This document shows positions 10,091 through 53,181 of a stretch of DNA of 53,181 bases, in pieces (the first letter of the stretch is position 1; each line of letters begins with the position of its first letter). Where the stretch lies: positions 1 to 53,181 of the IMG/VR virus record IMGVR_UViG_3300005573_001133. One strand, 5' to 3'. Origin of the DNA: a virus. Taxonomy: Duplodnaviria; Caudoviricetes. The position numbers and the translations under genes were made by a program. The notes beneath the pieces were generated by a model. That model did not search any database and was not told the DNA's origin. It saw only the letters and a program-made list of their open reading frames with translations.

Positions 10091-10104
10091 GGGGGGGGTG
10101 AACG

Positions 10105-11127: not shown

Positions 11128-11132
11128 GGGAT

Positions 11133-17788: not shown

Positions 17789-18160
17789 ATGGATTTCAGC
17801 ACAATCATACAAGGATGGGGAAAGAAACCCAAAAGCCAAGAGGCTTTACAGGTTCATAAACTTTTGGGCGAAATTTTACGAAGTTTTTTCGAGGGGGAGG
17901 AGATTCCTTTTCTTTGGGAGGCTTTTTGGTTATATCAAGGCATTTCACTCGCCCAGTTGGAAAAATGGGAGCGAAAATTCGGCAATCAAGTTTGGTTCAA
18001 AAATGCAATGCAGGATATGAAAATGCTTTTCGCAAATAAAATTGCCGAACGGTCGAAGTTTTTGGGTCCAGAAAATACCAAAAAGCTATTAGAAAGAGTT
18101 TTAGAGCAACAAACAGAAAAAGCAATTCATATAAGCGAGACAATTGAGATAAAGCAATGA
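17789..18160 (+). CDS. Putative terminase small subunit
   Basis: Position and ATGA overlap with terL; no motif recognised. Confidence 0.5.
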   Translation: MDFSTIIQGWGKKPKSQEALQVHKLLGEILRSFFEGEEIPFLWEAFWLYQGISLAQLEKWERKFGNQVWFKNAMQDMKMLFANKIAERSKFLGPENTKKLLERVLEQQTEKAIHISETIEIKQ

Positions 18161-25104: not shown

Positions 25105-25693
25105 TTCTGATATTGCGGTGCCCAGCAAGTCTTTGCTGGGCTACCGTGATATTTTCGGTTGGTTCGATGCAGAAAAAATATACCAACAGATTTTTGATTT
25201 CATTCCGAATGATGGTTGGTTTTGCGAGATTGGTGTATTTTTAGGAAAAAGCACGGCATTTTTTCAAGAAATTTGCAGAAAAAATCCAGATAAACAGGTT
25301 AATCATATTGTGATTGATACTTTTGAAGGAACAAAAGGCGAACACGAAAGGATTTTAGAGCAATTAGGAAAGCCTTTAAAAGAGGCTTTTATAGAAAATA
25401 TGCGGAAATGCGGCTTTAATTTAGACAAAATTTTTATAAAGGTTGGTAAATCACAGGAAATTCTCTTACGAGATTTTCCACATCATTTTTTTGATGCAAT
25501 TTATATTGATGGAGAACATTCTTACGAAGCGTTTAAATTGGATTTGAAACTTGCCCGTTTGAAAGTGAAAAAGGGTGGAATAATTGCAGGACACGATATC
25601 GATATACCTTCGGTTTGGCGTGTGCTACGAGAAGAAGTGAAAAATTTTGAGTGGGATAAATTACAACGGTCTTTTATTTTTATTAACAAATAG
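25073..25693 (+). CDS. Class I SAM-dependent methyltransferase (Methyltransf_24-like); start uncertain
   Basis: EIGVFLGKST, IDTFEG, IYIDGEHSYE and GGIIAGHD motifs. Confidence 0.88.
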   Translation: MEPTGLQQQYNSDIAVPSKSLLGYRDIFGWFDAEKIYQQIFDFIPNDGWFCEIGVFLGKSTAFFQEICRKNPDKQVNHIVIDTFEGTKGEHERILEQLGKPLKEAFIENMRKCGFNLDKIFIKVGKSQEILLRDFPHHFFDAIYIDGEHSYEAFKLDLKLARLKVKKGGIIAGHDIDIPSVWRVLREEVKNFEWDKLQRSFIFINK

Positions 25694-26116: not shown

Positions 26117-26375
26117 ATTAAATGAAATCACTCTTTTACAGCAATATTTTGACATTTTCAGTATTGAATCGCAGGAAAATACTTGGGATGTCTGGTCAAT
26201 TATGCCCTATTCAGAAGAGCGGCAATGGTGGTCAATCTGTTGGAATCTTTCCGCAGGTCGAATTGAAATTGCACAAAATATTTTCGAGACGATGGACATA
26301 GTAGACATTTTTGAGAAATATGCAATTAAACTGAGTTTAGAATACATACCACGGGAGGAAACCGATGGCAGCTGA
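26094..26375 (+). CDS. Putative frameshift extension of the tail chaperone (T-like), +1 frame
   Basis: Frame is open from 26073 to TGA 26375 with no ATG before 26202; fills the gap up to the tape measure gene. Confidence 0.6.
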   Translation, partial: FVQKLESKLNEITLLQQYFDIFSIESQENTWDVWSIMPYSEERQWWSICWNLSAGRIEIAQNIFETMDIVDIFEKYAIKLSLEYIPREETDGS

Positions 26376-34887: not shown

Positions 34888-35146
34888 GGTTCGATTTTGT
34901 AAATTGCAGAATCATTGCGAAATAAATTTACCTTCGAGGTTCGATTTCGCACGTTGCAAAATCATTGCGAAATCATTACAAAAAAGAAAACAATTATAAA
35001 CAATTATGAACAATTTCTCTTTTCGATTTCCCTTGATTTTCTTGAATTTGAAGAGCTTAAAAAATGGGGTTGTGACCCTAACGGGGTCACTCACTCACCG
35101 CATCAAATCTTCATTTCCGCTGGTTCGTTGCAAAATCGTTGCTAAA
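34886..35146. other. Putative attP: arm-type repeats around a palindromic core
   Basis: 38-bp direct repeats at 34886 and 34936, (A)AATC(A/G)TTGC motifs on both sides, core GTGACCCTAACGGGGTCAC at 35072-35090 next to the integrase stop. Confidence 0.65.
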
Positions 35147-36150
35147 TGTTTCTCGAAATACTCAAAATCGGGGTTCCGCATATATTCCTTGAACTGAACA
35201 TTTACGCTTTGACCTGCAAGACGGGCACGAATATCAACTGGTATCCCTAACTGACTCCATCGATTGATAGCAGTCTTGCGAATCGTATGGAAATTCTTTC
35301 TTGGGTCAATGTCCAATTTCTTTCGTAATTCCCTAAAATCCTTTGCAAGCATTGCCCCACTGGGATATGGCACAGGTTTGGGAAAACCATTTTGTTTTGC
35401 TTCTTCTAATAACTGAATAACCTCCGGAAAAAGTTTATAAGGAAATAATCTAATCCGCCCCATTTTCCCGTGTATTATAAAACTATTCTCTTCTATATCC
35501 TGCCATTCCAATTTCACAAGCTCAGAAAGTCGCATTGCGGTGTAATATGCCAATTCCAAAGAAATCCGTAGGCGTTTATTCTTTTGTGCTGCTTCTATGA
35601 TTTTTGCCCATTCTTCATTGCTATATGTTCTTGGAGGCGGAGCTTGATATTTCGGTCGAATATCTTTGGTAATAGGATTCTTTTCTATCCATCCTTTTTC
35701 AACGCAAAAGTTGAAAAAATAATGGAGAGAACGCATTTTCCCATCCATCGAGTTATTACTAATCGGAAGTGTATTTCGCACTTCGATTATATGCTGTCGA
35801 ATAGCCTCATAATCATCAATAAACATATCATCAGCAGATAAAAATTGTCTAAATATCGAAAAATATTTCTTTTGTGTGCCTTTATTTCGTGTAACCAGCA
35901 CTTCTTTATAAAAAACTTCTTTTGCTTCTTGTAAAGTTACAGGGTGCATCCGATATTTTTTGAATTCCTGTATTCTTTCTGTAAGAATTTGCATTGCAAT
36001 GGTTCTATTTTGCGGAACCCATCGCAAATTTGTGGCTTTACGAACCCCATTTACAGAGGTGTATACCTTTCCGTTATGTGGATAACAGAAAGCACGCACA
36101 TACAGTGGATGCACCCACCTATTTTTCGACGGCTTGGCGTAACGGGGCAT
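35095..36150 (-). CDS. int: Tyrosine integrase
   Basis: TAMRLSEL (R), HGKMG (K), FHTIRK (HxxR), AGQ and C-terminal Y; SAM-like core-binding domain. Confidence 0.92.
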   Translation of the reverse strand: MPRYAKPSKNRWVHPLYVRAFCYPHNGKVYTSVNGVRKATNLRWVPQNRTIAMQILTERIQEFKKYRMHPVTLQEAKEVFYKEVLVTRNKGTQKKYFSIFRQFLSADDMFIDDYEAIRQHIIEVRNTLPISNNSMDGKMRSLHYFFNFCVEKGWIEKNPITKDIRPKYQAPPPRTYSNEEWAKIIEAAQKNKRLRISLELAYYTAMRLSELVKLEWQDIEENSFIIHGKMGRIRLFPYKLFPEVIQLLEEAKQNGFPKPVPYPSGAMLAKDFRELRKKLDIDPRKNFHTIRKTAINRWSQLGIPVDIRARLAGQSVNVQFKEYMRNPDFEYFEKHLATILQRTSGNEDLMR

Positions 36151-36153: not shown

Positions 36154-36471
36154 TTACAAATATTTCTGAATTATTGCTTGATTGTATTCTTCTGCTTTCT
36201 TTTGATAATTAACAATATCTTTAATCCACCATATAAAATAACCGATGATAACTAGGTAAATAATACTAAACCAAAATAAAAATTGCTTACCTATCTGTTT
36301 TAAGTAAAGATAATGCACGCCCAAAATAGTGCAAATCAAAAGCATCGTTGGATTAATTTTTTGCCTCCAAAAGTCATAAATAAATTGCTGTTGCTCGAAT
36401 TCCGTCAATTCGTTAAATCGCTTAAATTGTGCTGGGGTTAAATAGCCCCGAATTTCAATTGGTAATTCCAT
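36154..36471 (-). CDS. TM2-domain membrane protein (possible superinfection exclusion)
   Basis: LGVHYLYLKQIGKQFLFW..IWWIKD motif; lies in the lysogeny operon. Confidence 0.75.
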   Translation of the reverse strand: MELPIEIRGYLTPAQFKRFNELTEFEQQQFIYDFWRQKINPTMLLICTILGVHYLYLKQIGKQFLFWFSIIYLVIIGYFIWWIKDIVNYQKKAEEYNQAIIQKYL

Positions 36472-36502
36472 AGAACCTCCTTTGATTTAGTTTAACATAA
36501 AA

Positions 36503-37132
36503 TCACGGAATCCATTCGACTTTGCGAACGACTCCGATAACTTTTAATTCTCGAAATCCATTGATTCTTTCGGGTTCATATTTAGGATTTATACTTTCAA
36601 GCCAAATTTCTTTCCCTTTAATTCGAAAAACTTTGCAAACAAGTATTCCATCAAGAACACCAACAATAATTTGCCCATCCCGTGGTTCAATATTCTCTTC
36701 AACGATAATTCTTGCACCATTTGGAATTTTAGGCTCCATACAATCTCCATTAACCTCAAAGGCAATAAATTTGGGGGAATATAAACGAATTGGTTCTTTA
36801 ATATATTCTTCCATAAATTCTGGTGTATAACCTTTTCCCGCATTAACTGGCACTCTTGAATGACGAAGAATAAGCATCTCGGGATATTCAACAGGTTTTA
36901 ATTGATTTTCCTTTGATAAGTATGGCTCACCATTGCCATATAAAAGCCAACCAATATTAATTCCTAATTCTTTTAATTTTCTTAAATTTTTTTGCGAAAT
37001 TCCCTTCCCACCCGATAACCATCGTGAAACATACTCAGGATAAACACCCAAAGTATCTGCGAACTTCTTTTTCTTCCCTTCAAACTTATCATCAATGATT
37101 TTTTTTAATCTTTCAGAAAAATTTTTTTCCAC
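36503..37132 (-). CDS. cI: CI/LexA-like repressor (HTH + S24 peptidase domain)
   Basis: N-terminal HTH, INIGWLLYGNGE, V.AG cleavage site, VNGDCMEP (Cys where Ser is usual), CK and VIGVV motifs. Confidence 0.9.
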   Translation of the reverse strand: MEKNFSERLKKIIDDKFEGKKKKFADTLGVYPEYVSRWLSGGKGISQKNLRKLKELGINIGWLLYGNGEPYLSKENQLKPVEYPEMLILRHSRVPVNAGKGYTPEFMEEYIKEPIRLYSPKFIAFEVNGDCMEPKIPNGARIIVEENIEPRDGQIIVGVLDGILVCKVFRIKGKEIWLESINPKYEPERINGFRELKVIGVVRKVEWIP

Positions 37133-37268: not shown

Positions 37269-37451
37269 ATGCATAACAAAATTAAACAAAAAAATCCAAA
37301 AAACAAAACCTTCCGCAATATCGCATTAATAAAAGAAGAAGAGACTTTACTAATCGATTATTTGAAGCAAAAATTGAATTTACCATCTCGCCGTGAAGCA
37401 ATTCTTTTTGCGGTAAAAAAAGCAATTGCGGAACTGGAAAATGGAAAATAA
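37269..37451 (+). CDS. Small Cro-position regulator (RHH-like)
   Basis: First gene divergent from cI; NIAL..LKQKLNLPSRREAILFAV pattern. Confidence 0.6.
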   Translation: MHNKIKQKNPKNKTFRNIALIKEEETLLIDYLKQKLNLPSRREAILFAVKKAIAELENGK

Positions 37452-40622: not shown

Positions 40623-42764
40623 ATGGATAAGAACCAAATTTTAGACCTTTACCGCAAGACAAAACTAAATTTGTTTCCCGCTAGTGGAAAAGCCCCGGTC
40701 TCATCTTGGCGAAAATATCAGAATATTAAAATCACAGAACCTGAACTTGATACTCTACTTTCCCTGAAAAACCTGAAACGAGAAATAACTGGCATCGGAA
40801 TAATCTGTGGGGGCACGGATAATATTGAATGCCTTGACCTTGATAATAAAGGGAATATGGCATCGAAAATTCTCGAAAAACTCCGAAAACTTACCACGAA
40901 GGAATTTTGGGATTCACTTTACATTGAATCTACACCCTCCGGAGGTTACCATATAATTTACTCTTGCGAAAAAATCTCTGGTAATACGATTCTTGCCCGA
41001 AATAAAAACAATGAGACTATCGCCGAGACACGGGGCATTGGTGGGTTCGTTGTTATCGCTCCCACACCGGGGTATACCCCAATACAGGGCACGCTCGAAA
41101 AAATCCCCAGAATTTCCCCCCACGAGCGTGCCCTTCTTTTTTCTATTTGCTCTTCTTTCGATGCGAATTTCTCTCTCTCTACTCGCACTCGACCGGGAGA
41201 TGAGTTCAACCAAAAAGCAAATATCGAGGATATTCTTATTCCTTTGGGTTGGAAAAAAACTGGGGGGAATAGTTTTGTTGAATATTGGCTCCGCCCGGGA
41301 AAAGAATATGCACCTAGCTCCTGCTCTGCTACTTGGAACCCTCACTTGCGAAAATTTTATGTCTTTTCAACTAATGTCCCTGAACTGAAAGAAAATCAAG
41401 CTTATGACCTTTTTGGCCTCTTTACTCACTTATATCATCACGGGGATTTCCAAAAGGCTACAAAGGAGCTGCTAAAACTTGGCTATGGCACTAACGGTCA
41501 CGAAGAAAAAGTTATAGCAAAACAAAAGGAGGCTTTTGAGATTGCAGTCGACTTTTTAAAATCAAAAGCATCCTTCCGCCGAAACCTGGTCACTGGCTTG
41601 ATAGAGTTTAAAACTGATGAGGATTGGGATAACTTACGAGACCAACATCTTGATGCTTGGTGGACTGAATTTAAACTGCAAGGTCATAGGGTTCCTTACG
41701 AATATTTTAGTAAAATTATTTCAGGACAACTCGCAACTGATTACCACCCCTTCCGAGAATATTTTTACTCTTTGCCACCTTGGGATGGCTTCGATTATAT
41801 TCAAGAATACCTCGATTGCTTTGAAACAGAAATCCCGGAACAATTCGCTAATCTTTTTAAAAAATGGGTCGTCGGCGTTGTTGCAAATGCCCTTGAAAAA
41901 GATTTAAATCAGCACTGCTTAACTCTTGTGGGCCCACAAGGTATCGGTAAAACTTCAATGCTGCGTCTTCTTTGCCCTCCTTCACTTTCTAAATATTATG
42001 CTGAAACTTCTATCCCTTCCACAGCCGATAAGGATTCGTTGCTCTTAGTTGCTGAAAATATTCTTATCAATCTGGACGAGATGGAAACTTCTACAAATGA
42101 GGAAATTGGTTTCCTCAAATCGCTCATTACTCGAAAAGATATTAAAATCCGTCGACCTTATGCTCGATATGCAGAGGTTCTGCCTCGACACGCTTCTTTT
42201 ATGGGTAGCTTAAACCGAAACCTTTTCCTAAATGACCCAACAGGAAGTCGACGCTTTTTTGTTATCCCAATTAAGTCGATTTCTTTCCCGAGTAATTTTT
42301 CTGCCGACGGTCTTATGGCTCAGGCTTACAAAATGTTTCAGGAAGGGCATAGCTTTAAACTCTCACCGGAAGAAATTGAGGAAATAACTGATTACAATGA
42401 GAATTTCACCTTACCTTCGATTGAACTAGAATTGGTTCAAAAATATTTTGAACCTGTTGAGATACCAGAAAATTGGACTCCAAGAGATATTCAAGCTGTT
42501 GCTTGGGCAAAGGGTTGGGTTTTGATGACCGCTACTGAAATTTTTCAAGAATTAACAGAAGCCGCTAGCAAAATTAAACTTAGCTTACGAATGCTTGGGT
42601 TAAATCTACAAAAATTCAATGCTAAACAGATTTTAATCTGGGATAATGGAGCTAAAAAAAGAGTTTATGTCCTTAAACGCAAATCTAATTCTCCAAATTC
42701 CTCCACTGTTGTTCAACCTAAACCTACAAAGGAAGAGGAAGAAGATGAAGAAATGCCGTTTTGA
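40623..42764 (+). CDS. Bifunctional primase-polymerase fused to a VirE/VapE-like helicase
   Basis: GIGIICG, CLDLD, TPSGGYH and ETRG.GG prim-pol motifs; GPQGIGKT, INLDE, RRPY and DPTGSRRF helicase motifs. Confidence 0.9.
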   Translation: MDKNQILDLYRKTKLNLFPASGKAPVSSWRKYQNIKITEPELDTLLSLKNLKREITGIGIICGGTDNIECLDLDNKGNMASKILEKLRKLTTKEFWDSLYIESTPSGGYHIIYSCEKISGNTILARNKNNETIAETRGIGGFVVIAPTPGYTPIQGTLEKIPRISPHERALLFSICSSFDANFSLSTRTRPGDEFNQKANIEDILIPLGWKKTGGNSFVEYWLRPGKEYAPSSCSATWNPHLRKFYVFSTNVPELKENQAYDLFGLFTHLYHHGDFQKATKELLKLGYGTNGHEEKVIAKQKEAFEIAVDFLKSKASFRRNLVTGLIEFKTDEDWDNLRDQHLDAWWTEFKLQGHRVPYEYFSKIISGQLATDYHPFREYFYSLPPWDGFDYIQEYLDCFETEIPEQFANLFKKWVVGVVANALEKDLNQHCLTLVGPQGIGKTSMLRLLCPPSLSKYYAETSIPSTADKDSLLLVAENILINLDEMETSTNEEIGFLKSLITRKDIKIRRPYARYAEVLPRHASFMGSLNRNLFLNDPTGSRRFFVIPIKSISFPSNFSADGLMAQAYKMFQEGHSFKLSPEEIEEITDYNENFTLPSIELELVQKYFEPVEIPENWTPRDIQAVAWAKGWVLMTATEIFQELTEAASKIKLSLRMLGLNLQKFNAKQILIWDNGAKKRVYVLKRKSNSPNSSTVVQPKPTKEEEEDEEMPF

Positions 42765-43062: not shown

Positions 43063-44313
43063 ATGCTTTGGGAACATCAAATAGAATTAGCACGGCAAGC
43101 CTTTGAGATACTTCGGGATAAACACATTGTTTACCTCGTAATGGAGATGCGGGTAGGCAAAACCCTTATCGCATTAGAAACAGCAAGATTGATTGGGGTA
43201 AGAAAAATTTTATTCGTCACAAAAAAGAAAGCCCTCCCCTCTGTGCTAATGGATTACCAGAGGGAAGGCTACGCCAAACACTTCCAGCTGGATGTGACTA
43301 ACTACGAGCAAACACACAAATTTCGTTCTGGCTACGATTTAGTAGTCATAGACGAAGCACATCTCATTGGAGGCTTCCCAAAGCCTACACTCCGAGCGAA
43401 ACGCTTAAAACGAATCGTGCAAGATGCATACCTTATTCTCATTTCTGGGACGCCGACACCCGAGAGCTACTCTCAAATTTTCCATCAGTTTTGGATTTCC
43501 GACTTCTCACCATTTCCACATAAGAATTTTTATCGCTGGGCTGATGAGTATGTAAAAGTCTACACTATGCAGCTCAACGGCGTCTCCGTGCGGAAGTATG
43601 AGAAAGCAGACGAAGCGAAAATCCAAGCCGTCATATCCCCCTACCTTGTAAGCTATACACGAAAGCAGGCGGGTTTCGAGGTGACCGATGTTGACGAACA
43701 AATCCTCGAAGTTCCTATGCAAGAGAAGACCTATCGCTTTGTGAAGGAACTATTACGCAATCGAATTTTTAAATTCCCTGACGGCGAGGTCGTTCGAGTG
43801 GATAATCCAAGTAAAATGCTCTGGAAAGTGCATCAAGTATATTCAGGAACAATTATTTGCGAGAGCGGAAGCAGAAAGATTATTGATACCTCGAAAGCAA
43901 AAGCAATTTGGCGTTGGTTTTATGGGCGAAAAATTGCAATTTTCTACAAATATATTTCTGAATTCGAGTTACTCACCAAAGTTTTCCCCAATTACACCAC
44001 CGACCCACAAGTTTTTGCTCGTAGTTCCAATGCCATTTTGCTTTTGCAGGTTGCTTCGGGTTCGATGGGGATTGACCTTTCCAGTGCAGAAGCAATTGTT
44101 TTTTACAACATCGACTTTTCCGCAACAAACTATTGGCAAGCACGAAGCAGACTTTTCCATAAAGATAGAAAAAGCGAGGCAAAAGTATATTGGGTTTTTG
44201 CACAAAACGGGATAGAGAAAAAAATTTATTCCGTTGTGCAAAAAAAGAAAGATTACACAGCTCGATATTTTCAGAAAGATTTTATGTTCAACAAAGTCAA
44301 GGATTTAAAATGA
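43063..44313 (+). CDS. SNF2-like (SF2) helicase
   Basis: MRVGKT, IDEAH, SGTP, GIDL and QARSR motifs. Confidence 0.87.
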   Translation: MLWEHQIELARQAFEILRDKHIVYLVMEMRVGKTLIALETARLIGVRKILFVTKKKALPSVLMDYQREGYAKHFQLDVTNYEQTHKFRSGYDLVVIDEAHLIGGFPKPTLRAKRLKRIVQDAYLILISGTPTPESYSQIFHQFWISDFSPFPHKNFYRWADEYVKVYTMQLNGVSVRKYEKADEAKIQAVISPYLVSYTRKQAGFEVTDVDEQILEVPMQEKTYRFVKELLRNRIFKFPDGEVVRVDNPSKMLWKVHQVYSGTIICESGSRKIIDTSKAKAIWRWFYGRKIAIFYKYISEFELLTKVFPNYTTDPQVFARSSNAILLLQVASGSMGIDLSSAEAIVFYNIDFSATNYWQARSRLFHKDRKSEAKVYWVFAQNGIEKKIYSVVQKKKDYTARYFQKDFMFNKVKDLK

Positions 44314-45074
44314 GAGGACTACTTGAAACTTATTACGACATTCAGCGAGTTCGGATTGCCCTTAACAATCAGCTCTTTGCAAAAAATAGCGGGCTTTCCG
44401 AACAGACGCAAGTGCATCTCAAAGAAAAAGTTCTGCACTTTTTGCTTCAAAGCGAAAGGAATTTGCAGAGCTTTATGAAAATTTCGCTGCGTTATGAACC
44501 AATCTGGAAAGAGTGGCTCAAAGATGTCAAAGGGATTGGACCCGTTTTAGGTTCGGTGTTAATATCTTACCTCGAACCAATCGAGCGTTTTCCCACAATC
44601 TCCAAGCTTTGGCGATATTCAGGATATGCTTGCATTAATGGGAAAATTGAGAGACGGCAAAAAGGTGAGAAGCTGCACTATAATCCACGCCTAAAAACAT
44701 TACTTTGGCTTTTAGGTGAAAGTTTTGTTAAATCGAAGGGGTTCTATCGTGAGTTATACGAACAGATGCGAGCGAAATATGATGCCAAATGGAAAACCCC
44801 AGACGATTGCGGGAGTGCAGCTTGCAAGCGTTTCGGGAAATGCCTTGATGCACATCGCTATGCAGCAGCAAAGCGAAAAGTTGTAAAAACATTTCTTGCG
44901 CATTACTGGATGGTTTCTCGACAGCTCAAAGGCTTATCAGTCGAGAAGCCATACATTTTGCAATATTCCGATAAGCATACGCATTTAATTCCACCGCCCG
45001 GATTTGATATCAAATTTGATTATGGGCGTCCAGAATTACCACCAGAATTAGAAAGGTTAATCGAAGCAATATGA
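44310..45074 (+). CDS. tasA: TasA-like Nop-domain protein (IS110-related RNA-binding domain, no nuclease domain)
   Basis: YYDIQRVRIALNNQ coiled coil, WLKDVKGIGPVL, RFPTISKLWRYSG, YNPRLKT, YRELY and H..AKRKVVKTFL motifs; no N-terminal DEDD/RuvC domain; followed by a 36-nt array. Confidence 0.82.
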   Translation: MRGLLETYYDIQRVRIALNNQLFAKNSGLSEQTQVHLKEKVLHFLLQSERNLQSFMKISLRYEPIWKEWLKDVKGIGPVLGSVLISYLEPIERFPTISKLWRYSGYACINGKIERRQKGEKLHYNPRLKTLLWLLGESFVKSKGFYRELYEQMRAKYDAKWKTPDDCGSAACKRFGKCLDAHRYAAAKRKVVKTFLAHYWMVSRQLKGLSVEKPYILQYSDKHTHLIPPPGFDIKFDYGRPELPPELERLIEAI

Positions 45075-45081
45075 TGCGTTT

Positions 45082-45514
45082 AGCCACTTTGAGCATTGTA
45101 ACTAATGGATTTGTGCGAGGCACCTTTTTTATGGTTCCCATATGGAAACTTCGAGCTATTTTAGTCCAGTTGTTCAAGAAATGTGTGCGAGGCAGATTAG
45201 GTGTGTTATCCATTTATCGCATTCGAGCCAGGCGGGAGATGGTTCTTATAATCAGTTTTCGAGGCAGGTTTTACATGTTCCCTATCAAAATTTTTCGAGC
45301 CAGACTAAATTCTCTAAACAAAAAACATATGCGAGCCATAGACCATATGATTTACTTTGCATTATTGCGAGCTTTAAGCAGTATTCTGTTTATGATTTGT
45401 TTGCGAGGCTGTCGAACAATGTTCCCTATTCCATCTTTTCGAGGCATACGAGGGATGTTCCCTATTAAATTTTTTCGAGCCAGACCAGAACTTATATTCA
45501 CAGGCGGTCTTGCG
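45082..45514 (+). ncRNA. TIGR-like dual-repeat guide array, 12 units of 36 nt
   Basis: CGAG recurs every 36 nt from 45116 to 45476; unit = AG(C/G)(C/T)(A/T) + 9 nt + 9-nt loop (e.g. TGTTCCCTA x3, TGGTTCCCA) + 9 nt + T(G/T)CG. Confidence 0.88.
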
Positions 45515-45515
45515 T

Positions 45516-45610
45516 TTCAACCCTCCGGGGTTGAAGATAGTCATTAATAAGTTAAACTTATAAGTTTAATGCGTTTTGGAGCCGAAGACCGCATATCTTC
45601 GGCTCCTTTG
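45516..45610 (+). terminator. Hairpin cluster ending the array
   Basis: TTCAACCC-tccg-GGGTTGAA (45516-45535), palindrome TTAAACTTATAAGTTTAA (45552-45569), GGAGCCGAAGA-7nt-TCTTCGGCTCC followed by TTTG (45578-45610). Confidence 0.65.
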
Positions 45611-45648
45611 TATTATTTTAGTATGTGTTACAAATCAACAATTCTCAA

Positions 45649-45954
45649 ATGCGAGAGAGCGACATACAGCGAAAAATTTTAAAATACCTTGAATCACAGG
45701 GGGGATATGCAGTCAAGGTAGTGGTAGCAAATCGAAGTGGAGTTCCGGATATCTTATATTGTCTTGATGGGGAGTTCTGGGCTTTTGAGGTGAAAAGCCC
45801 GAAAGGTAAACAATCGCCTTTGCAGGCTTGGAACCAAGAGCAAATTGAAAAAGCTGGGGGGAAATATTTTGTAATATGCAGCATCGAGGAAGTAAAACAA
45901 ATTTTGGGTGAATATGCCAAAAGAAAAGGAAATCTTCAACCAACTCCAAATTGA
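45649..45954 (+). CDS. VRR-NUC domain nuclease (Holliday junction resolvase-like)
   Basis: ESDIQ..GVPDI..FEVKSPKGKQSPLQ motif. Confidence 0.9.
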   Translation: MRESDIQRKILKYLESQGGYAVKVVVANRSGVPDILYCLDGEFWAFEVKSPKGKQSPLQAWNQEQIEKAGGKYFVICSIEEVKQILGEYAKRKGNLQPTPN

Positions 45955-46189
45955 TGACCTCACAGATGATACCCGAGAGGTAGCAGAACGAATAGGTATT
46001 GAAAATTTCAGGAAATTGGTGCAGGAATTTGGAGGCACCAATCTTTATATCCCTTTCTTGCGTTCCTTCCCGAAATTTTTATCTCGCATTATTCCACAGT
46101 TATTAACGAATGGATATTCAATCCGTCAAGTCTCGCAACTTCTTAATGTTTCGCAAAATACTGTCAGGAGGTATAGTGGAGGAAATTAA
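45914..46189 (+). CDS. Mor/C-family transcription activator
   Basis: AERIGIENFRKLVQEFGGTNLYIP plus a C-terminal HTH. Confidence 0.85.
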   Translation: MPKEKEIFNQLQIDDLTDDTREVAERIGIENFRKLVQEFGGTNLYIPFLRSFPKFLSRIIPQLLTNGYSIRQVSQLLNVSQNTVRRYSGGN

Positions 46190-46802
46190 GGCAATTTCGT
46201 ATCTATTGCCCTCTGAAATGCGGAGTGCAAAAGGTGAAGAAGCAGGAACTTGTATTCTCTGTGGTGTTGAAACAGAAGAAGGTTTCCCGGTGGAATTTTC
46301 GAGCACTTTTACAGCATTTTCTTATCTTGCATATGGCAACGTTTTGTGTCCATCGTGCAATGCATTTTTCAGAAACCAAGACTTTCGACGACGCAGTTGG
46401 AAAATTACGCCCAGTGGAGTTGAGTTTTTAAAAAGAGAGCAGGTTTTGGAATTTCTTACAACAGAAGAGAAGCCAATTCCTTTTGCGGTATACATTACTT
46501 CCACTGGGCAGAAGCAAGGATGGTTACAGGGTTTTCGTTATGTAAGTTTCTCGAAGCAAAAGTTTTTCATTCATACCGACTTTGTGGGCTGTATTTTAGC
46601 GGAATACAAGCAAGTTGTTGAATTTGCTGAACTAATCAAGTTTTTGCGGGAAAGAAAAGTCTCCAAAACAGAACTTACGAGCGGTGAATTTTCAATGTAT
46701 ACTTATCGACGCAGCATAGAGAACAATTTCGAGTTAGAACTTCGCAAAGCAAAAGAGTTTGTTTCACAACCTTTATGGGAGGTTATGGTATATGTCTGCT
46801 GA
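46176..46802 (+). CDS. csf1: Type IV Csf1 (Cas8-like large subunit)
   Basis: GGAGG RBS with GTG start; CILC..FT...CPSC Zn finger, PFAVYI..GQK motif; first gene of the csf operon. Confidence 0.75.
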   Translation: MEEIKAISYLLPSEMRSAKGEEAGTCILCGVETEEGFPVEFSSTFTAFSYLAYGNVLCPSCNAFFRNQDFRRRSWKITPSGVEFLKREQVLEFLTTEEKPIPFAVYITSTGQKQGWLQGFRYVSFSKQKFFIHTDFVGCILAEYKQVVEFAELIKFLRERKVSKTELTSGEFSMYTYRRSIENNFELELRKAKEFVSQPLWEVMVYVC

Positions 46803-47196
46803 TTATAACGAATTAGAGCAAAAGCTTGTAGATTTTCTTGCTATTCTCTATTCACGAATTAATTGGGGGAAGATGCATACTTCCAAGAATGCACACGATA
46901 TTTTTAACCATCGAGTTCGAGCGGCAGCACGGCGAGAGAATCTGTATGCTTTTGCATCGAAACTATGCAATTATTTCGGGTTACAAAGTTTACCCGAGGA
47001 AGCGCAAGTTGTTTTAGACGAAATTCGACCGCATCAGTATTGGATTTTAAATACACTTTCGACCGAGCATATACCTTTTTGTGTGCGTGCGATTATGAAA
47101 GCAAAACAGATTAAGAGTGAGCGTTTACAAGAAAAGAAAAAGATTGAAAATGTGGAAAATTCTTTGTTTAACAAATTAGAGGTTCAAAATGATTAA
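46792..47196 (+). CDS. Type IV-B small subunit (Cas11-like)
   Basis: Small helical protein between csf1 and csf2 (RVRAAA..FASKLC). Confidence 0.65.
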   Translation: MSADYNELEQKLVDFLAILYSRINWGKMHTSKNAHDIFNHRVRAAARRENLYAFASKLCNYFGLQSLPEEAQVVLDEIRPHQYWILNTLSTEHIPFCVRAIMKAKQIKSERLQEKKKIENVENSLFNKLEVQND

Positions 47197-48025
47197 GAAG
47201 TATGAAGGCTATATGATTGCAAAAACAACTATTCATCACGGTGGCAATGAAAAAACAGGAAGCACACCGATTTTGCGTTCAATTTTTATGTTCGTGGATG
47301 GACTTGGGGAAGTGCAGATTCCTTATATTAACGGCAATGCTATTCGAGGAAAACTTCGCAGAATGCTTATGAAGGATTTCTTTACGAATTTGGATTACAA
47401 TGTTGAGGAACTCAATCCGAAGCTGTATCACGTGTTTTTCAGTGGTGGTGCTTTGGAAAGCACAGAAGCGACTGTGGGAGTTATTGATTTAGAATTGCGT
47501 CGCAAGATTCGGAAAATGTTCCCACCACTTGCTTTAATGGGTGGGGCTATTGGGAATCAAATGATACAGGGGAAACTAAAAGTAGGACACGCTTTTCCAG
47601 TTTGCCGTGAATATTCAGATTTCTTGCCTGAATTTTTGCGAAGCGACCCCAGGGCAAATAAATTCGTTCGAAGCTTTACTGACGAAGCATTTAATACTCG
47701 TCGAGATGATTTACGAGCTGATAGAGAAGAAGATGAACAAGCTGTGCAAATGAAGGTTGATTTTGAATGTTTTATACCTGGAACAAAGTTCTTTCATTGG
47801 TTTGTCACCGAATATACAAATGAGTTAGAAGATGCAACATTCGGGCGTATGATGGAGTTATTCCGTCAATCTCCTTATGTTGGCGGAATGGCTTCGGTAG
47901 GTTCCGGGGAAGTATTCTTTGAATATTCGCCCAACTTTCCGTCCTCGGAAAAATATTTTACTTTCATTGATGAGAACAAACAAGGGATTTTAGAATTATT
48001 ACAAGAAGTCGGGTCACGACTATGA
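47189..48025 (+). CDS. csf2: Type IV Csf2 (Cas7 backbone RAMP)
   Basis: IHHG, IPYINGNAIRGKLRR, FSGGAL, P.LALMGG, GKLKVG, TRRDD, QM..E..IPGT and VGGMASVGSGEV G-loop motifs. Confidence 0.9.
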   Translation: MIKKYEGYMIAKTTIHHGGNEKTGSTPILRSIFMFVDGLGEVQIPYINGNAIRGKLRRMLMKDFFTNLDYNVEELNPKLYHVFFSGGALESTEATVGVIDLELRRKIRKMFPPLALMGGAIGNQMIQGKLKVGHAFPVCREYSDFLPEFLRSDPRANKFVRSFTDEAFNTRRDDLRADREEDEQAVQMKVDFECFIPGTKFFHWFVTEYTNELEDATFGRMMELFRQSPYVGGMASVGSGEVFFEYSPNFPSSEKYFTFIDENKQGILELLQEVGSRL

Positions 48026-48789
48026 GTGAAGAGAAAGAATATCTTTATTTTGCTGATAAAATTCTCAATGGAGTTTCTGAAAGGTGGGGAAAGAAATGGA
48101 ATTATGAGCCGTTAGAAGTTAGAATATATCTCGCAACGCCTTTGGTTTTAAACCATCCTTGGGTGCATCTTGATGGTGTTCTTTCCCACCTTGCACTTCG
48201 CAAAGCATTGAGTCAAGATTACTATCTTTTGCCTGCGAAATATCCAATATCGAAAATCACCAAAGGATTAGAACTTCCCAATTTCCCGATTCGCTATGCT
48301 GGGGCAATTCCACAAGCCTCAATTTCATTCTTTGAGAATGTAAAGCCTCGAACCGAAGTAGTTTATAAGAAATTAGAAGATAGGTGGCTGGGAATCGTAA
48401 AAAAACTATATCACGGTTCAGGGTATTTCAAAGATTACGCAATGAAGCATATTTATATACCTACCCCACTAGTAAAATTCTATGTAGTTGGAGATAAAGA
48501 AGGATTATTAGAGATACTTTCCGAGCTGGTTTCACTTGGAGATAATTCCCGTTTAGGCTGGGGCTATATCAGCAGAATCGGGATAACTACAATTAATGAA
48601 GACAAGAGCATAGTTCACGAAGGGAAAGCGATGCGTCCCATACCTGTGAGATTTTGCAAAAGTTGGGCTGACTCTTTTCTTCTTGCTTGGCGTCCGCCCT
48701 ATTGGTCAACCGATATGGTAGAAGAATGTGTTCCACCGGGTTCAGAAGTTGAGCTTTTACCAGAAACTATCGAAAAGATGAGGTTATGA
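48022..48789 (+). CDS. csf3: Type IV Csf3 (Cas5-like RAMP)
   Basis: L.TP..HLDGVL, SGYFKDY, FYVVGD, LGDNSRLGWG G-loop, MRPIP and RPPYW motifs. Confidence 0.87.
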   Translation: MSEEKEYLYFADKILNGVSERWGKKWNYEPLEVRIYLATPLVLNHPWVHLDGVLSHLALRKALSQDYYLLPAKYPISKITKGLELPNFPIRYAGAIPQASISFFENVKPRTEVVYKKLEDRWLGIVKKLYHGSGYFKDYAMKHIYIPTPLVKFYVVGDKEGLLEILSELVSLGDNSRLGWGYISRIGITTINEDKSIVHEGKAMRPIPVRFCKSWADSFLLAWRPPYWSTDMVEECVPPGSEVELLPETIEKMRL

Positions 48790-49490
48790 ACAAACGCTGG
48801 CGTGAAACATTTTCCTTGTGGGGTCAAAGTGAGGAATTCACTCAGAAAGTTGCTGAGGCAAAACAAATAATTAAAGATGCGTTGAATGATTTTCAAAAGC
48901 CATATTGCTCATTTTCGGGCGGGAAAGATAGTCTCGTGATGACTCATCTTGTTTGGCAAATAAAGCCAGACATTGAAGTAATAACATTGGACTATTCGAG
49001 GAACTTTTTGCCGTTGCGATATCTTATAGAAATTAAAGATATTGCTAAAAAATTAGGATGGAATCATCGAGTAATTCGCAGCCGAATTTTAGAAAAAGAT
49101 GAAAATGACGGGATACCTCGAATGATGCAAGTTTTGAACCGAGAAGTTACACCATATTTATTGCGTGAAGGTTTTGACCTTGCCTTTGTTGGAATAAGGA
49201 AAGAAGAGTCATCGGCAAGGAAACATCGAATTGAGGGGCATAGTAATCTTACAAAAATACCCGAAGTGCATCCGGTTGCTAATTTTACTTGGATGGATAT
49301 TTGGGCTTATATTATTTCACGAGATTTGCCATATATGAGGTTTTACGATATCTATGGAAAAGTTGTAGGTTGGGAAAACGTAAGATTTTCCACCTTTTTT
49401 GATAAGGAGCTTGAAAGTTTAGGTGGTTCTAATCTTGATGGGTATTTTTCTTATAGGTATCGTTACAAGTCTCCGCAAAAGCGAGACTAG
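48786..49490 (+). CDS. cysH: CysH-like PAPS-reductase family protein (type IV-B accessory)
   Basis: SFSGGKDS PP-loop, FVGIRKEES..R, HPVANFTWMDIWAYI motifs. Confidence 0.9.
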   Translation: MNKRWRETFSLWGQSEEFTQKVAEAKQIIKDALNDFQKPYCSFSGGKDSLVMTHLVWQIKPDIEVITLDYSRNFLPLRYLIEIKDIAKKLGWNHRVIRSRILEKDENDGIPRMMQVLNREVTPYLLREGFDLAFVGIRKEESSARKHRIEGHSNLTKIPEVHPVANFTWMDIWAYIISRDLPYMRFYDIYGKVVGWENVRFSTFFDKELESLGGSNLDGYFSYRYRYKSPQKRD

Positions 49491-49509: not shown

Positions 49510-49971
49510 TCACTTTCTAAAATATCTTTTTCTGTTTATAACTTTTGCGCAAAAGGCTTCCAACGAATCAGCCAAAAAATATCCATCGACCCAAACCTTT
49601 CGCAACAGCCTACCATAAACATCAAAATTGTTCTGGGTATAATCCTTGAAAAGTAAAACCTTCTTGTTTTCAATCTTATCTCTTACAAATCTCAAAGCCT
49701 GCCATCCCAAATAATATGCTTTATCAATGTCAATTCCCGCCTCATCAGCTTGCTTTTGCAATCGGTTATTCCTATGAATTTCAAAACAATCAATTCCTAC
49801 CAACCGTATCTTATACCGCTGGGAATCGTAATAAAACTCATAAGTATCTCCGTCAATAACCCGGGTTATAGTAACCCAACAAGAGTCATCGTAAACAGGA
49901 TTTTTTGTCTGAGCTTGTGCTACCCCTATTAAGGTTATAGAAAGAACAATAAGAGAAACAAACTTATTCAT
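49510..49971 (-). CDS. Secreted thermonuclease (SNase family)
   Basis: Signal peptide; RVIDGDT, IRLVGIDCFE and DVYGRLL motifs. Confidence 0.88.
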   Translation of the reverse strand: MNKFVSLIVLSITLIGVAQAQTKNPVYDDSCWVTITRVIDGDTYEFYYDSQRYKIRLVGIDCFEIHRNNRLQKQADEAGIDIDKAYYLGWQALRFVRDKIENKKVLLFKDYTQNNFDVYGRLLRKVWVDGYFLADSLEAFCAKVINRKRYFRK

Positions 49972-50022
49972 TTTATTTCCTCAAAATACTACAATATTCG
50001 AAATTATAAAAAAAAAATAAAA

Positions 50023-50059
50023 ATCCCCCTTGTGAAAATAAAAATTTCACAAGAGGGAT
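50023..50059 (-). terminator. Intrinsic terminator of the leftward operon
   Basis: ATCCCCCTTGTGAAA/TTTCACAAGAGGGAT stem followed by a T-rich run on the minus strand. Confidence 0.7.
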
Positions 50060-50075
50060 AAAAAAAAGTGTGATT

Positions 50076-50504
50076 TTAATCTTCCGGGAACAGTCGGTCC
50101 CGAAGGTATTTCTCAACAATATGTTCTACCATCTTGGTTATGCTGCGTTTCGAATCTTTGGCAAACGCTACAAGTTTTTCGTAGATGTCCGGTGGCAGTA
50201 ATATTTGCACTGCCTTCCGGTCATAATCTGCGATTACTCGGGCGGATGGGCAACCTTTCGTGAGAAGATGTCGAGCCCAATCCTCCCATCGATTTTGGTC
50301 TATTGGTGGAGTGTCGACGATGATTCCCCGGTCGTTGTCCCAAGGATAGATATTCCCGGCCTCGTCAATACACAGCCAACCGGGAATAATTTTTTCAGGG
50401 TCGTAGTCTTTTGCAACGCCGACCCAAGTGTTGTGTTCCGAGTCCCATTGCTCATAGCAGTAGGGCTCGGCGAGTTCTTCATTTTTCGTAACGATGAGTT
50501 TCAT
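50076..50504 (-). CDS. Unknown domain fused to a C-terminal ribbon-helix-helix
   Basis: KAVQILLPPDIYEKLVAFAKDSKRSITKMVEHIVEKYL RHH pattern; N-domain paralogous to 39600-39887. Confidence 0.7.
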   Translation of the reverse strand: MKLIVTKNEELAEPYCYEQWDSEHNTWVGVAKDYDPEKIIPGWLCIDEAGNIYPWDNDRGIIVDTPPIDQNRWEDWARHLLTKGCPSARVIADYDRKAVQILLPPDIYEKLVAFAKDSKRSITKMVEHIVEKYLRDRLFPED

Positions 50505-51331
50505 TGTTCCTCCCTATAGTCATAACAATGACAAACAAAATTTTTGAACATCGAACATCTTGAACAGGGTGAGGGGAATTTCCCCTCAAAAACAACAACG
50601 TTCGTTTCGCTTATGTTTTCCTCCCAGTTTTTTTTGGGGTCAGCATCCCAGGGGTTGAGCAGGGATACATCGTATCCCTCAATCCCTATCTTCGTTGGCT
50701 CGTCAAGGGTGATGGAGATTGTATCTTCTTCACCCTCGGTCACAAGAGAATACAGCACCAGGCTGTATCGCTCTTGCTCTTCATTAAGTTGCCCTTCGCA
50801 TGGGTAGTGGCAGTGGCATTCAATTTGAATGCCATTTCTTTCCATCTCGGCGGGAGAGAGTTCACGCCCGTGATAACGCTTTTTAATATGCTTGGCTCCC
50901 CAATCTTCTTCGAAGCCAAGCACCGCAAATAATTTCTTCTTCTTCTTCTCTTCTTCGAGGCTGGGGAAAATTCTCCAACCAGAGAAATGGAATTCTCTTA
51001 CCCCATCTTCTCTAATAATGCGTTCGTTAATTGGGAAAGCGAAGTTGAAAGACTTCTTGCTTTCCAAAAGCAACCGAGTCAACATATATGTTAGAGAGAA
51101 TTCACCCTCTAACATAATGTAAATATATGTCTCCTCTCCAATACCTATCTTTTCCAGCTCCGCTGTGATTTGCTGGAAAAGTTTTTGTGCGAGCAGATAG
51201 ACATCTGCTTGGGACAATTTTGAACCGACGCTGGGGAAGGGGATATCAACTATAATATCCCATCCCTCTTTTTGTTCGTCCTCCCATTCTCGGGAGGGGT
51301 GATTGCTGATGTTAAGAAGTAGCTTTTTCAT
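50501..51331 (-). CDS. Csx15/16/20-like (ring-nuclease-like) N-domain plus an unknown Cys/His-rich C-domain
   Basis: LLNISNHPS.EW..EQ, IVDIPFP, EGEFSLTY, ER and F.F..WR motifs. Confidence 0.6.
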   Translation of the reverse strand: MKKLLLNISNHPSREWEDEQKEGWDIIVDIPFPSVGSKLSQADVYLLAQKLFQQITAELEKIGIGEETYIYIMLEGEFSLTYMLTRLLLESKKSFNFAFPINERIIREDGVREFHFSGWRIFPSLEEEKKKKKLFAVLGFEEDWGAKHIKKRYHGRELSPAEMERNGIQIECHCHYPCEGQLNEEQERYSLVLYSLVTEGEEDTISITLDEPTKIGIEGYDVSLLNPWDADPKKNWEENISETNVVVFEGKFPSPCSRCSMFKNFVCHCYDYREEQ

Positions 51332-51391
51332 TTTTAAATTTCCTTTTGTTTAAGATAGAGAAATAAGAAAACAGCCCGTATATTCCCCTCA

Positions 51392-51697
51392 TCAAACCAA
51401 TTTTGTATTTGAGGAGACCACGAATCCATCGCTTTTGAATTCGATGCATCGTGGCCTGTTTTCTATGCGGGGGACATACCCCGTCACATACCAACGAAAC
51501 ACGAAGCGGGTTCCCGCTTCTTGTTGGTCACTCGATAGTGTAAAGGTCACATCGACCTTTTTTTCACTATCGCTCGGGGGGATTATCCCCCTCAATAGTT
51601 CTGCTACCGACTGGGTGCCGTATTCCCAGTCTTTTTCCATCTCGGCAATGAATTCGCCGAGTGTCATTTCTCTGTTTTCTGCTGCTAATGTTCTCAT
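51392..51697 (-). CDS. Hypothetical protein
   Basis: AGGAG RBS; in the leftward operon. Confidence 0.65.
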   Translation of the reverse strand: MRTLAAENREMTLGEFIAEMEKDWEYGTQSVAELLRGIIPPSDSEKKVDVTFTLSSDQQEAGTRFVFRWYVTGYVPRIENRPRCIEFKSDGFVVSSNTKLV

Positions 51698-51754
51698 TTC
51701 AGAACTCCTTTTTTTTGTTTAACAATATTCCAAACCTTGTTCTTGTGGATGGAA

Positions 51755-51774
51755 GGGGCGGGGGAACCCGCCCC
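51755..51774. terminator. GC-rich intergenic hairpin
   Basis: GGGGCGGG-ggaa-CCCGCCCC. Confidence 0.5.
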
Positions 51775-52575: not shown

Positions 52576-52884
52576 ATGCGAAGAATGGAACCAGCACAAT
52601 ACAATGTAGTAGTTCGGCGATATGTGGACCACGCAATTTCATTTGGGTTCCCTTATGATATTGCACCCTATACCTTTTATGCTTTTGTGCTGGATTTCGA
52701 GGGAAACATAAAACTTTCCTATTCAGTGCAAAAAGATATAGTTAACAACAAAGTGCAAATCCGGGCAAGCCGAAACGATTTTGCCAATATGGAGGTAGGG
52801 AAATATCGCTGGACATTTTTACAAGAAGACTCCGCAGGCTATCGAGTTGAGCTTGTAAATGGCATTTGGGAGTTACAGAAATGA
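52576..52884 (+). CDS. BppU-N-like virion protein (positional analog of 13288-13617)
   Basis: Same position and size; GKYRW..LVNG.W pattern. Confidence 0.55.
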   Translation: MRRMEPAQYNVVVRRYVDHAISFGFPYDIAPYTFYAFVLDFEGNIKLSYSVQKDIVNNKVQIRASRNDFANMEVGKYRWTFLQEDSAGYRVELVNGIWELQK

Positions 52885-53181
52885 TGATAATTGAAGAAAA
52901 AGTGCAGTTAAATGTTATAGATGAAAAAGTTGATTTAGCTTTTCAGTCCCAACCAATTGTTTTAAATGTTTCCCCCCTACTTGTTGGCGGGAATTATGGC
53001 GATATGTGGAAAACTCAATATGACTCCAACCTCGATGGCATTGTTGACAAAAGCGAAATCGTTGCAAGGTATTATGTATGTGGAGAGCAAATCAATAGTC
53101 TCAAAGTCGTTTTTGTCAGCAATGGCAAGATATACAAAGCGGATAGTTTGGACTGGTCAAGTATTGAAAAACTTGTTGGGA
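52881..53181 (+). CDS. Partial structural gene that continues into the sequence at 13885; N-terminus differs from the gene at 13608
   Basis: Hand translation MMIIEEKVQL...QYDSNLDGIVDKSEIVARYY is in frame with the repeat. Confidence 0.8.
   Translation, partial: MMIIEEKVQLNVIDEKVDLAFQSQPIVLNVSPLLVGGNYGDMWKTQYDSNLDGIVDKSEIVARYYVCGEQINSLKVVFVSNGKIYKADSLDWSSIEKLVG
53019..53181 (+). repeat. Copy 2 of the 163-bp repeat, at the window end
   Basis: Offset of 39297 from copy 1. Confidence 0.95.

Follow-up and report, generated by a model that had tools for sequence, protein, structure and literature searches.

The question raised by one part of the virus record IMGVR_UViG_3300005573_001133 (Duplodnaviria; Caudoviricetes) is what a tailed phage does with a CRISPR-Cas operon that has no CRISPR array, and when in its life cycle the operon is used. 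The whole record of 53,181 bases was analyzed and is called the window here. Five genes on its plus strand, at 46176–49490, almost certainly form a type IV-B CRISPR-Cas module of the canonical kind, without an array, and the best overall explanation, favored on balance and with reserve, is that this module serves in counter-defense during lytic growth. Type IV-B is the one CRISPR-Cas subtype whose role is described as still unclear in 2026 (PMC13676074). A preliminary description of the same DNA had treated 45914–49490, which runs from the ATG of a Mor-like activator gene to the stop codon of a cysH-like gene, as a type IV-B operon wired into the lytic program of the phage; the open reading frames (ORFs) exist where it placed them.

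Family Identity of the Five Proteins

The operon consists of csf1 (46176–46802; type IV Cas8-like large subunit), with a GTG start behind AGGAGG, cas11 (46792–47196; small subunit), csf2 (47189–48025; Cas7 backbone), csf3 (48022–48789; Cas5) and a gene for a cysH-like PP-loop ATP pyrophosphatase of the CasCysH type (48786–49490). The CRISPRCasTyper-derived models of PADLOC recognize the first four products as Csf1_0_IV (3e-40), Cas11_0_IV (5.6e-44), Csf2_0_IV (1.8e-72) and Csf3_0_IV (1.9e-51), and Csf2 matches the type IV-B Csf2 chain of PDB 7jhy at 1.3e-12; the grouping with Csf1, Csf2 and Csf3 by hidden Markov model (HMM), on which the preliminary description depended, is thereby borne out. 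The NCBIfam models for csf1 (7.8e-6), csf2 (9.7e-15) and csf3 (cas5_csf3; 2.1e-16) also respond, all below their curated equivalog cut-offs. Against the PDB, the Cas11 profile (alignment A2) matches Cas11c at 0.0036, the Csf1 profile reaches Csf1 chains only at E 0.15–0.55, single-sequence searches with Csf1 and with Cas11 give no meaningful match, and type IV-A chains match the window Csf proteins weakly. The CxxC...CxxC zinc finger of Csf1 (C26, C29, C58 and C61) is conserved in alignment A1.

No CRISPR array, mini-array or Rfam family was found in the record, and Pfam Cas6 and Cas1 are absent from the whole of it, at a completeness rating of 66%. The five genes fill 46176–49490 and leave no space in the operon for a DinG/RecD helicase. 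All testable defining features of type IV-B are present, namely Csf1, Cas11, Csf2, Csf3, a cysH-like gene and the lack of an array. A predicted complex of Csf1, Csf3 and the CysH-like protein (alignments A1, A5 and A4, with CysH as partner) scored 0.00 against a mark of 0.32, in a prediction made without controls, and carries no weight for or against such a complex.

The fifth protein matches Pfam PAPS_reduct (2.8e-18) and carries the PP-loop ATP pyrophosphatase motif SGGxDS in the form SGGKDS. A genuine PAPS/APS reductase (CysH) has a C-terminal catalytic cysteine in an ECGLH-type motif. In the window protein, the C-terminal third contains no cysteine, no cysteine is invariant among ten aligned homologs, and the NCBIfam cysH models give 49.9–53.9 bits against cut-offs of 154–165; the candidate assignment as a bona fide PAPS/APS reductase was rejected because of the missing C-terminal cysteine and these scores, and the protein is regarded as a PP-loop relative, of a fold family in common with DndC and BrxP. 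What is invariant in all ten homologs is S44-G-G-K-D-S49 together with G136, R138, E141 and R145, the last four within a GxRxxES..R motif. The protein is 24% identical (1e-12) to the product of the fifth gene in the IV-B set of Skermania phage SPI1. Judged by its sequence, it is of the CasCysH type described in PMC8175902 and not a sulfate-assimilation reductase.

Conservation of the Module

Relatives of the module were examined in 140 loci, comprising 13 viral, 30 further viral, 17 species-representative-genome and 80 metagenome loci, the last being the best 80 of 195 relatives; the 43 viral loci are all those in IMG/VR found by the patterns used. The order csf1-cas11-csf2-csf3-cysH is kept wherever the contig is long enough, including 12 of the first 13 viral loci, with the exceptions of L010, which has no recognizable csf3 or cysH, and of L030, L031, L115 and L216, in which csf1 or cysH is displaced. 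Because this order recurs in related loci, it is far beyond chance. Measured against L001, a DNA contig 96% identical to the window, the dN/dS ratio is 0.02–0.07 for each of the five genes, as compared with 0.06 for the neighboring SNF2 helicase gene.

These values bear on whether the module could be a remnant in decay and without function, a reading that the lack of array, nuclease and adaptation genes could suggest. All five frames are intact, the dN/dS values are low, and relatives with no more than 25–55% identity show no change in the catalytic and zinc-finger motifs; the remnant reading is extremely improbable and close to refuted.

Among GenBank phages the module is rare. A tblastn search with Csf2 in 50,697 GenBank phage records returned Skermania phage SPI1 as the only match, and blastn of 44190–49490 against the GenBank phages gave no match. 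In SPI1 (KR011061.1; L041 4831–8464), an isolated phage, orf40–43 correspond by PADLOC to Csf1, Cas11, Csf2 and Csf3 and orf44 to a CysH-like homolog; all five are annotated as hypothetical and lie about 2 kb upstream of the lysin and holin genes.

Organization of the Block

The five genes overlap one another and are joined to two genes in front of them. With start codons chosen by the Shine-Dalgarno-like motifs upstream, the csf1/cas11, cas11/csf2, csf2/csf3 and csf3/cysH overlaps amount to 11, 8, 4 and 4 nucleotides (nt), which confirms the mutual overlap described earlier; because of these overlaps and motifs, the five genes are regarded as translationally coupled. The gene in front of csf1 (45914–46189, plus strand) encodes a predicted Mor-like late transcriptional activator that combines a Mor-type segment at its N-terminus with a C-terminal helix-turn-helix (HTH); its overlap with csf1, likewise claimed before, is real and measures 14 nt, or 80 nt if csf1 starts at the ATG at 46110. 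It overlaps in turn by 41 nt with the gene of a VRR-NUC/Hjc-like PD-(D/E)XK nuclease (45625–45954, plus strand; PHROG 93 endonuclease 7.6e-29, Pfam Hjc 1.8e-4, VRR_NUC 9.3e-4). For the Mor-like protein, the family matches are PHROG 836, "late transcriptional activator", at 7.2e-10 over residues 11–47 only, Pfam Mor at 5.6e-4 with 20.3 bits, below the cut-off of 24.9, and HTH_23 at 4.8e-5. The five genes are intact, coupled, under strong purifying selection and fused to the VRR-NUC and Mor-like genes. The Mor-like/csf1 junction is also kept in an Ignavibacteria contig (L025; 70% Csf2 identity), in the order VRR-NUC, Mor-like, csf1 and so on, and in L053, whose Csf2 is about 65% identical.

A terminator-like hairpin with a T-run lies on the plus strand at 45578–45606 (11 pairs, 7 of them GC; identical in L001); it ends a TIGR array that is described below, and its own end is 19 nt before the block. 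Because of this hairpin, the unit is taken to be VRR-NUC, Mor-like and IV-B, and not the replication operon. On the other side, 19 nt past the cysH stop codon, the block is closed by a convergent gene for an SNase-like nuclease (49510–49971, minus strand; Pfam SNase 2.1e-5; NCBIfam EcnA 2.4e-16, below cut-off). That VRR-NUC, Mor-like and IV-B genes are a single co-transcribed block is quite probable.

The Carrier Phage and the Timing of Expression

The ORF listing and family scans indicate a temperate tailed phage, with an integrase (35095–36150) and a CI-like repressor (36503–37132) on the minus strand, followed by an exonuclease gene, a primase-helicase gene (40623–42764) in the rightward block, the SNF2 helicase gene (43063–44313, plus strand), which was assigned to the replication block, a tas gene and its array, the VRR-NUC/Mor/IV-B block, the convergent genes, and then endolysin (16817–17347) and the large terminase TerL (18157–19392). 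Portal and major head protein genes are present, and the tape measure gene lies at 26365–30684. The record is composite: 13722–13884 is repeated at 53019–53181 with 98% identity, and in L001 window position ~53176 continues into ~13722–14090, on to 16136 and then into endolysin and TerL. From this joint and the 163-nt repeat it follows that the IV-B phage is a unit of about 39.3 kb, 13722–53019, that closes on itself. Positions 1–13721 are a second, different head module with Terminase_3, a Mu-type portal and capsid E; these first 13.7 kb also carry ParB-methylase genes, and the sole ParB_N of the window lies there (151–1329). The carrier is inferred to be a temperate, siphovirus-like phage of a hot-spring bacterium of the Bacteroidetes/Chlorobi group.

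In this unit the block points the same way as the early and replication genes and sits between them and the lysis and packaging genes, which is the place of late regulators in lambdoid phages. Relatives point to the same region, since the IV-B module is at most 7 kb upstream of terL in L001, L002, L003, L004, L005 and L010, and L003 has it flanked by terS and terL.

The preliminary description had expected expression together with the replication or middle genes. The overlap with the Mor-like gene agrees with this, but the terminator at 45578–45606 separates the block from the replication genes, and expression itself is only hinted at by contigs from RNA libraries in which DNA may be present. 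The stretch was detected in hot-spring and microbial-mat sequencing runs, and in all four RNA-library runs examined assembled contigs of a 90–95% identical relative cover the block, one of them (3377 nt) spanning 45642–49016. Contigs from two studies share a clean start at 45642, others stop at 49571–49610, and the DNA contig L001 continues through both places; together this hints weakly at a transcript reaching from ~45642 to ~49570. An extended -10-like TGTTACAAA, read by eye at 45626–45634 ahead of the contig starts, is likewise a weak hint only. Cover in the RNA runs is low or absent over 49661–51688, a region that is partly missing in the relative (joint 50505 to 51756), and was not used as evidence. 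Lytic-phase expression is plausible, and it is rather likely that the block is switched on in lytic development.

The same evidence bears on another possibility, that the module is cargo expressed in lysogeny (a moron) and used, like type IV-A, in the competition of prophage and host with other mobile elements. The phage is temperate, with its integrase and CI-like repressor; type IV systems are reported to be tied to inter-element conflict (PMC7038947; PMC13676074); and the block, with a terminator before it and convergent genes after it, may be transcribed from a start of its own near 45642 and lies in an accessory hot-spot beside strain-variable genes. However, the block opens with genes for a nuclease of the resolvase type and for a Mor-like late activator, both lytic functions, and all junctions overlap; the position between terS and terL in L003 also counts against moron cargo, and with neither array nor Cas6 it is not apparent what would direct the module against competitors. 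A lysogenic role is therefore considered unlikely.

The Probable Host and Its CRISPR Array

A contig with a 98% identical csf2 (L024) belongs to a metagenome-assembled genome (MAG), G010, labeled "Bacteroidetes/Chlorobi group bacterium", which holds further phage pieces at 89–95% identity. In this MAG one contig carries Cas1 (2.5e-81) next to Cas3 (1.8e-38), and another, 158 kb long, has at its end a CRISPR array with a 37-nt repeat (L236 10383–11081). No RAMP-family match was found in the MAG; a 288-amino-acid (aa) ORF suspected as Cas6 proved not to be Cas6. The Ignavibacteria MAG that contains L025 also has Cas1, together with Cas6.

Six of the nine readable spacers of the G010 array match the phage unit 13722–53019, and none match 1–13721. 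The protospacers lie at 25326–25356 (30/31 positions), 25472–25506 (32/35), 37380–37411 (31/32), 43856–43886 in the SNF2 gene (30/31), 48431–48465 in csf3 (34/35; spacer at L236 10715) and 52726–52762 (33/37). These matches make the G010 bacterium the likely host and show the phage to be under heavy type I CRISPR pressure. About 100 nt in the gap between integrase and cI (36433–36532) match a contig of the host MAG (G010:C15:17259–17354) with 81% identity, and this segment is possibly the relic of an attachment site.

Proposed Mechanism

In the mechanism favored here, the VRR-NUC/Mor-like/IV-B block would be its own middle-type transcription unit, starting just past the terminator of the TIGR array, and would be switched on in lytic development together with the late activator. 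Csf1, Cas11, Csf2 and Csf3 would assemble on small RNAs not encoded by the module, with Csf2 and Cas11 as a filament on the small RNA and Csf3 and Csf1 as its caps, and the CysH-like enzyme may be the catalytic output, acting by adenylation or a nucleotide signal and using the alpha-phosphate of ATP. Both the filament on small RNA and the use of the ATP alpha-phosphate are carried over from what is reported of the IV-B family (PMC7937560, PMC8175902, PMC13676074). The resulting ribonucleoprotein would take up CRISPR RNAs (crRNAs) made in trans, most likely by the host, or other small RNAs, and would counter the type I CRISPR-Cas system of the host.

The idea of a guide sponge or RNA-guided modifier, offered in the preliminary description, is already in print (PMC7038947, PMC8175902). 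A Cas6b-like gene is present in or beside the operon in six loci, namely L007 and L013, where a Cas6b-type gene stands inside the IV-B operon (L007 11563–12261; L013 11560–12258; PADLOC 1e-74), and L011, L012, L035 and L095 (phmmer). No CRISPR array was found in the whole records of L007 and L013 (82 kb and 87 kb, the latter rated complete), and these array-less, Cas6b-bearing relatives point to CRISPR-type guide RNAs that may be supplied in trans. Together with a host array aimed at the phage, they favor an involvement of crRNAs; the specific proposal of crRNA capture or another counter-CRISPR mechanism is nevertheless tentative, less likely than not, and more doubtful than the lytic timing.

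Several points weigh against lytic counter-defense as formulated above. Given the terminator at 45578–45606, transcription of the block cannot be plain read-through from the replication genes, a promoter scan brings out no consensus sigma-70 site (31 promoter-like sites as against 42 in shuffles), and the RNA-library evidence consists of contigs of a 90–95% identical relative, with DNA possibly present and no control region from the lysogeny or structural genes. The assignment of the host rests on the array of one MAG and on binning. Pinilla-Redondo et al. judged a sponge unlikely because of its cost, and reported that IV-B is negatively correlated with other host CRISPR-Cas systems (PMC7038947); the host here has one. 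The sole purified IV-B complex is described as having bound heterogeneous non-CRISPR RNA (PMC7937560, PMC8175902). Finally, the strict conservation of the CysH site, as read from the alignment, argues against a passive sponge, and a pure sponge leaves this strictly kept active site unexplained.

The CysH-like protein and the RNA of the purified complex could be accommodated differently, by a device for nucleic-acid modification or partition in which the Csf proteins are a scaffold on any RNA and CysH and ParB-like partners act on phage DNA near packaging. A ParB_N gene of the kind seen in L006 is present in 21 of the 140 IV-B loci (among them L004, L005, L006, L008, L036, L054, L059, L081, L087–L089, L093, L115 and L122) and in none of 80 Tas loci, and ParB_N and PAPS_reduct-DUF3440 genes are often inserted between csf3 and cysH, in three loci with GNAT as well. 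Terminase genes repeatedly follow the module at a short distance, the CysH-like protein shares its PP-loop fold family with DndC and BrxP, and the purified IV-B complex reportedly bound non-CRISPR RNA (PMC7937560). However, the window block is without a ParB or DUF3440 gene, the sole ParB_N being in the other phage segment, no conserved cysteine is available in the CysH-like protein for sulfur chemistry, and a modification role leaves the Cas5/Cas8-type machinery for RNA handles, and Cas6b in relatives, unexplained. Such a device is improbable for this phage.

Farther downstream, at 50501–51331 on the minus strand, the window encodes a protein of 276 aa that begins with a Csx20/CARF-like domain (PADLOC 7.6e-11) and is rich in cysteine toward its C-terminus; its gene shares an operon with that of a ribbon-helix-helix protein and lies within a strain-specific insertion (joint 50505 to 51756). 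A tblastn search found nothing like it in all other loci searched. Its candidacy as sensor of a CysH-made signal was rejected, the protein being absent from L001, L002 and the RNA-run variants.

The TIGR-TasA Neighbor

Directly upstream of the block lies a TasA gene with a TIGR array, which the preliminary description had overlooked. The Tas protein (44310–45074, plus strand) matches NCBIfam TIGR_Tas_endo (NF052498) at 9.9e-52, above cut-off, and its ATG overlaps the SNF2 stop codon by 4 nt, so that tas is coupled to SNF2. Nuclease domains are found in some Tas proteins, RuvC in TasR and HNH in TasH. The window Tas aligns to residues 121–321 of the 331-aa PDB chain 9mty_A and to 81–303 of a TasH chain, the N-terminal ~120 residues of 9mty_A have no counterpart in it, and Pfam finds neither RuvC nor HNH; because only the Nop part aligns and no RuvC or HNH is matched, it is taken as the nuclease-less TasA type.

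The dual-repeat array (45114–45482, plus strand) has ten 36-nt units and a terminal edge repeat. Its 11 edge repeats, T[T/G]CGAG[G/C]CA, stand in exact 36-nt register, the loop repeat is close to TGTTCCCTA, and each unit has two 9-nt spacers. TIGR-Tas systems have been defined by a Nop-domain Tas, dual edge and loop repeats, pairs of ~9-nt spacers, 36-nt units and a terminator (PMC12045711), and the window locus shows the Nop-domain Tas, the 36-nt dual-repeat register and the terminator. Units vary between phages that are 96% identical, with 10 units in the window and 17 edge repeats in L001 and with different spacers; the RNA-run variants differ in the array region as well. Targets were sought with 26 units from the window and L001, in both strand arrangements, with gaps of 0–2 and at most 2 mismatches: in 673,649 bases of window and loci none rose above the level of shuffled spacers (0–3 per window), and none rose above background in the host cas and array contigs.

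On the same strand, csf1 follows the end of the array at a distance of 0.7 kb, and it was asked how often such a neighborhood recurs, using a four-sequence Tas HMM and counting Tas within 10 kb of IV-B genes as co-located. Co-location was found in 7 of the first 110 loci and in none of the 30 further viral loci (7/140), represented by the window lineage (L001, L044, L046, L047), by L090/L094 and by L117; counted by Csf2 cluster, the first 110 loci give 3 of 41, or 3 of the 22 whose two flanks each reach 5 kb or more. In L090/L094 (Csf2 ~50% identical) the IV-B genes are followed after 4 kb by Tas and array, and in L117 (43%) Tas is 6 kb away and the flank has no cysH. Tas is absent from nine other IV-B viral records, anywhere in the record (0/9), and one other Tas locus in the first sample is without IV-B.

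In the reverse direction, HMMs from our own alignments found IV-type genes in 3 of 80 IMG/VR Tas loci: in L140, which has csf1, cas11 and csf2, Tas and array are followed after ~1.3 kb by csf1, the order of the window; L142 has cas11-csf2-cysH-csf3 7 kb from Tas; and L136 has a csf1 remnant only. On a FastTree phylogeny of 69 Tas rows, the IV-B-linked Tas fall in at least 4 places. As base rates, 88 of the 50,697 GenBank phage records contain Tas, 83 of these being mycobacteriophages, a single record contains Csf2, and pattern scans of IMG/VR gave 81 Tas and 43 Csf2 loci. Tas/IV-B co-location, seen in about five separate lineages, stands far above these base rates, and the excess is real in these samples.

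It could be supposed, then, that IV-B works with the adjacent TIGR-TasA, with tigRNAs or TasA-bound sites giving the specificity and CysH the catalytic output, or with both in a common nuclease-free DNA-targeting pathway. The array's place 0.7 kb before csf1, the lack of a nuclease in either module, and the recurrence in both search directions with linked Tas scattered over the tree and tiny base rates are compatible with this. However, most IV-B and most Tas loci stand alone, as the 0/9 viral records and 0/30 further viral loci with Tas illustrate; distances (0.7 to 7 kb) and orientations (IV-B up- or downstream) scatter in the manner of accessory islands rather than operons; between array and block stands a terminator, and the gene to which tas is coupled is SNF2. 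Moreover, L140 and L136 look like decaying IV-B, with split csf2 and no csf3 or cysH found, L117 lacks cysH in its flank, TIGR spacer targets do not exceed background, and both modules favor the same hot-spot near packaging genes, which alone could raise co-location. A partnership in which tigRNA/TasA would supply specificity is accordingly rated quite unlikely, slightly below the lysogenic and modification alternatives, and the IV-B module is still read as part of lytic counter-defense.

Some features of the related loci stand apart from this. In L090, at 9419–9745, a five-repeat CRISPR array with a 37-nt repeat lies inside tas, flanked by a duplicated 37-nt protospacer, and one of its spacers corresponds to the beginning of tas in the sister contig L094. 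The assembly has probably fused a host array into this contig; if so, host spacers target tas. In L094, a 36-nt periodicity at 12.5 kb was rejected as an array, being an Asp/Glu-rich coding repeat. Behind the TIGR array of L094 (17437–19031) come a 107-aa protein and then TnpB (OrfB_IS605/Cas12f-like); the 107-aa protein is PD-(D/E)XK-like by eye only, without a Pfam match, and an order of Tas, array and small nuclease would resemble the window.

Comparison with Known Systems and Significance

Among described systems, the plasmid-borne, actinobacterial IV-B of Mycobacterium sp. JS623 (PDB 7JHY; PMC7937560) is reported with the same gene set as the window, both without array and Cas6. The window module, in contrast, is carried by a phage of a Bacteroidetes/Chlorobi-group host, is fused to Mor-like and VRR-NUC genes beside a TIGR array, and has low sequence identity to it. 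The IV-B of the Bathyarchaeia "Fuxiviridae" (PMC10848311) is described from a viral genome with a CysH-like gene, as here, and in both cases a host spacer matches a IV-B gene, cas7 in Fuxivirus and csf3 in the window phage; the Fuxivirus module has a mini-array beside it and an archaeal host, whereas the window has neither array nor mini-array and a bacterial host.

Type IV-A (CRISPRi-like, with DinG; PDB 7xfz, 8rc2) shares homologous Csf1, Csf2 and Csf3 and the lack of a nuclease with the window, but has DinG, Cas6/Csf5 and an array and no Cas11 or CysH, whereas no DinG, Cas6 or array was found here. For TIGR-TasA (PMC12045711; bioRxiv 10.64898/2026.09.09.750476), the segment 44310–45482 fits the published description, as a neighbor and not as part of the IV-B operon. 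The Mor/C family of Mu (Pfam PF08765, PHROG 836) resembles the Mor-like protein in its small size, N-terminal Mor-type segment, C-terminal HTH and place at the end of the early region, but the match is partial and the phage is not Mu-like (integrase and cI, no transposase); its role as an activator is predicted from sequence.

The IV-B module itself is of a known type, and its recurrent Tas neighborhood is unreported in the literature searched. No Tas/IV-B association was found in that literature, supplements lying outside the search, and the main texts of PMC12045711 and bioRxiv 10.64898/2026.09.09.750476, without their supplements, contain no IV-B, Csf or CysH beside TIGR. The locus unites a IV-B block with a late-activator gene, a host array with six anti-phage spacers and metatranscriptome libraries that contain the block, and this defined host array makes the counter-CRISPR idea concretely testable. 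The Tas/IV-B neighborhood is either a new example of a counter-defense island or a clue to the source of IV-B RNA; if the partnership were true, it would give IV-B a source of guides that is invisible to surveys seeking only CRISPR arrays.

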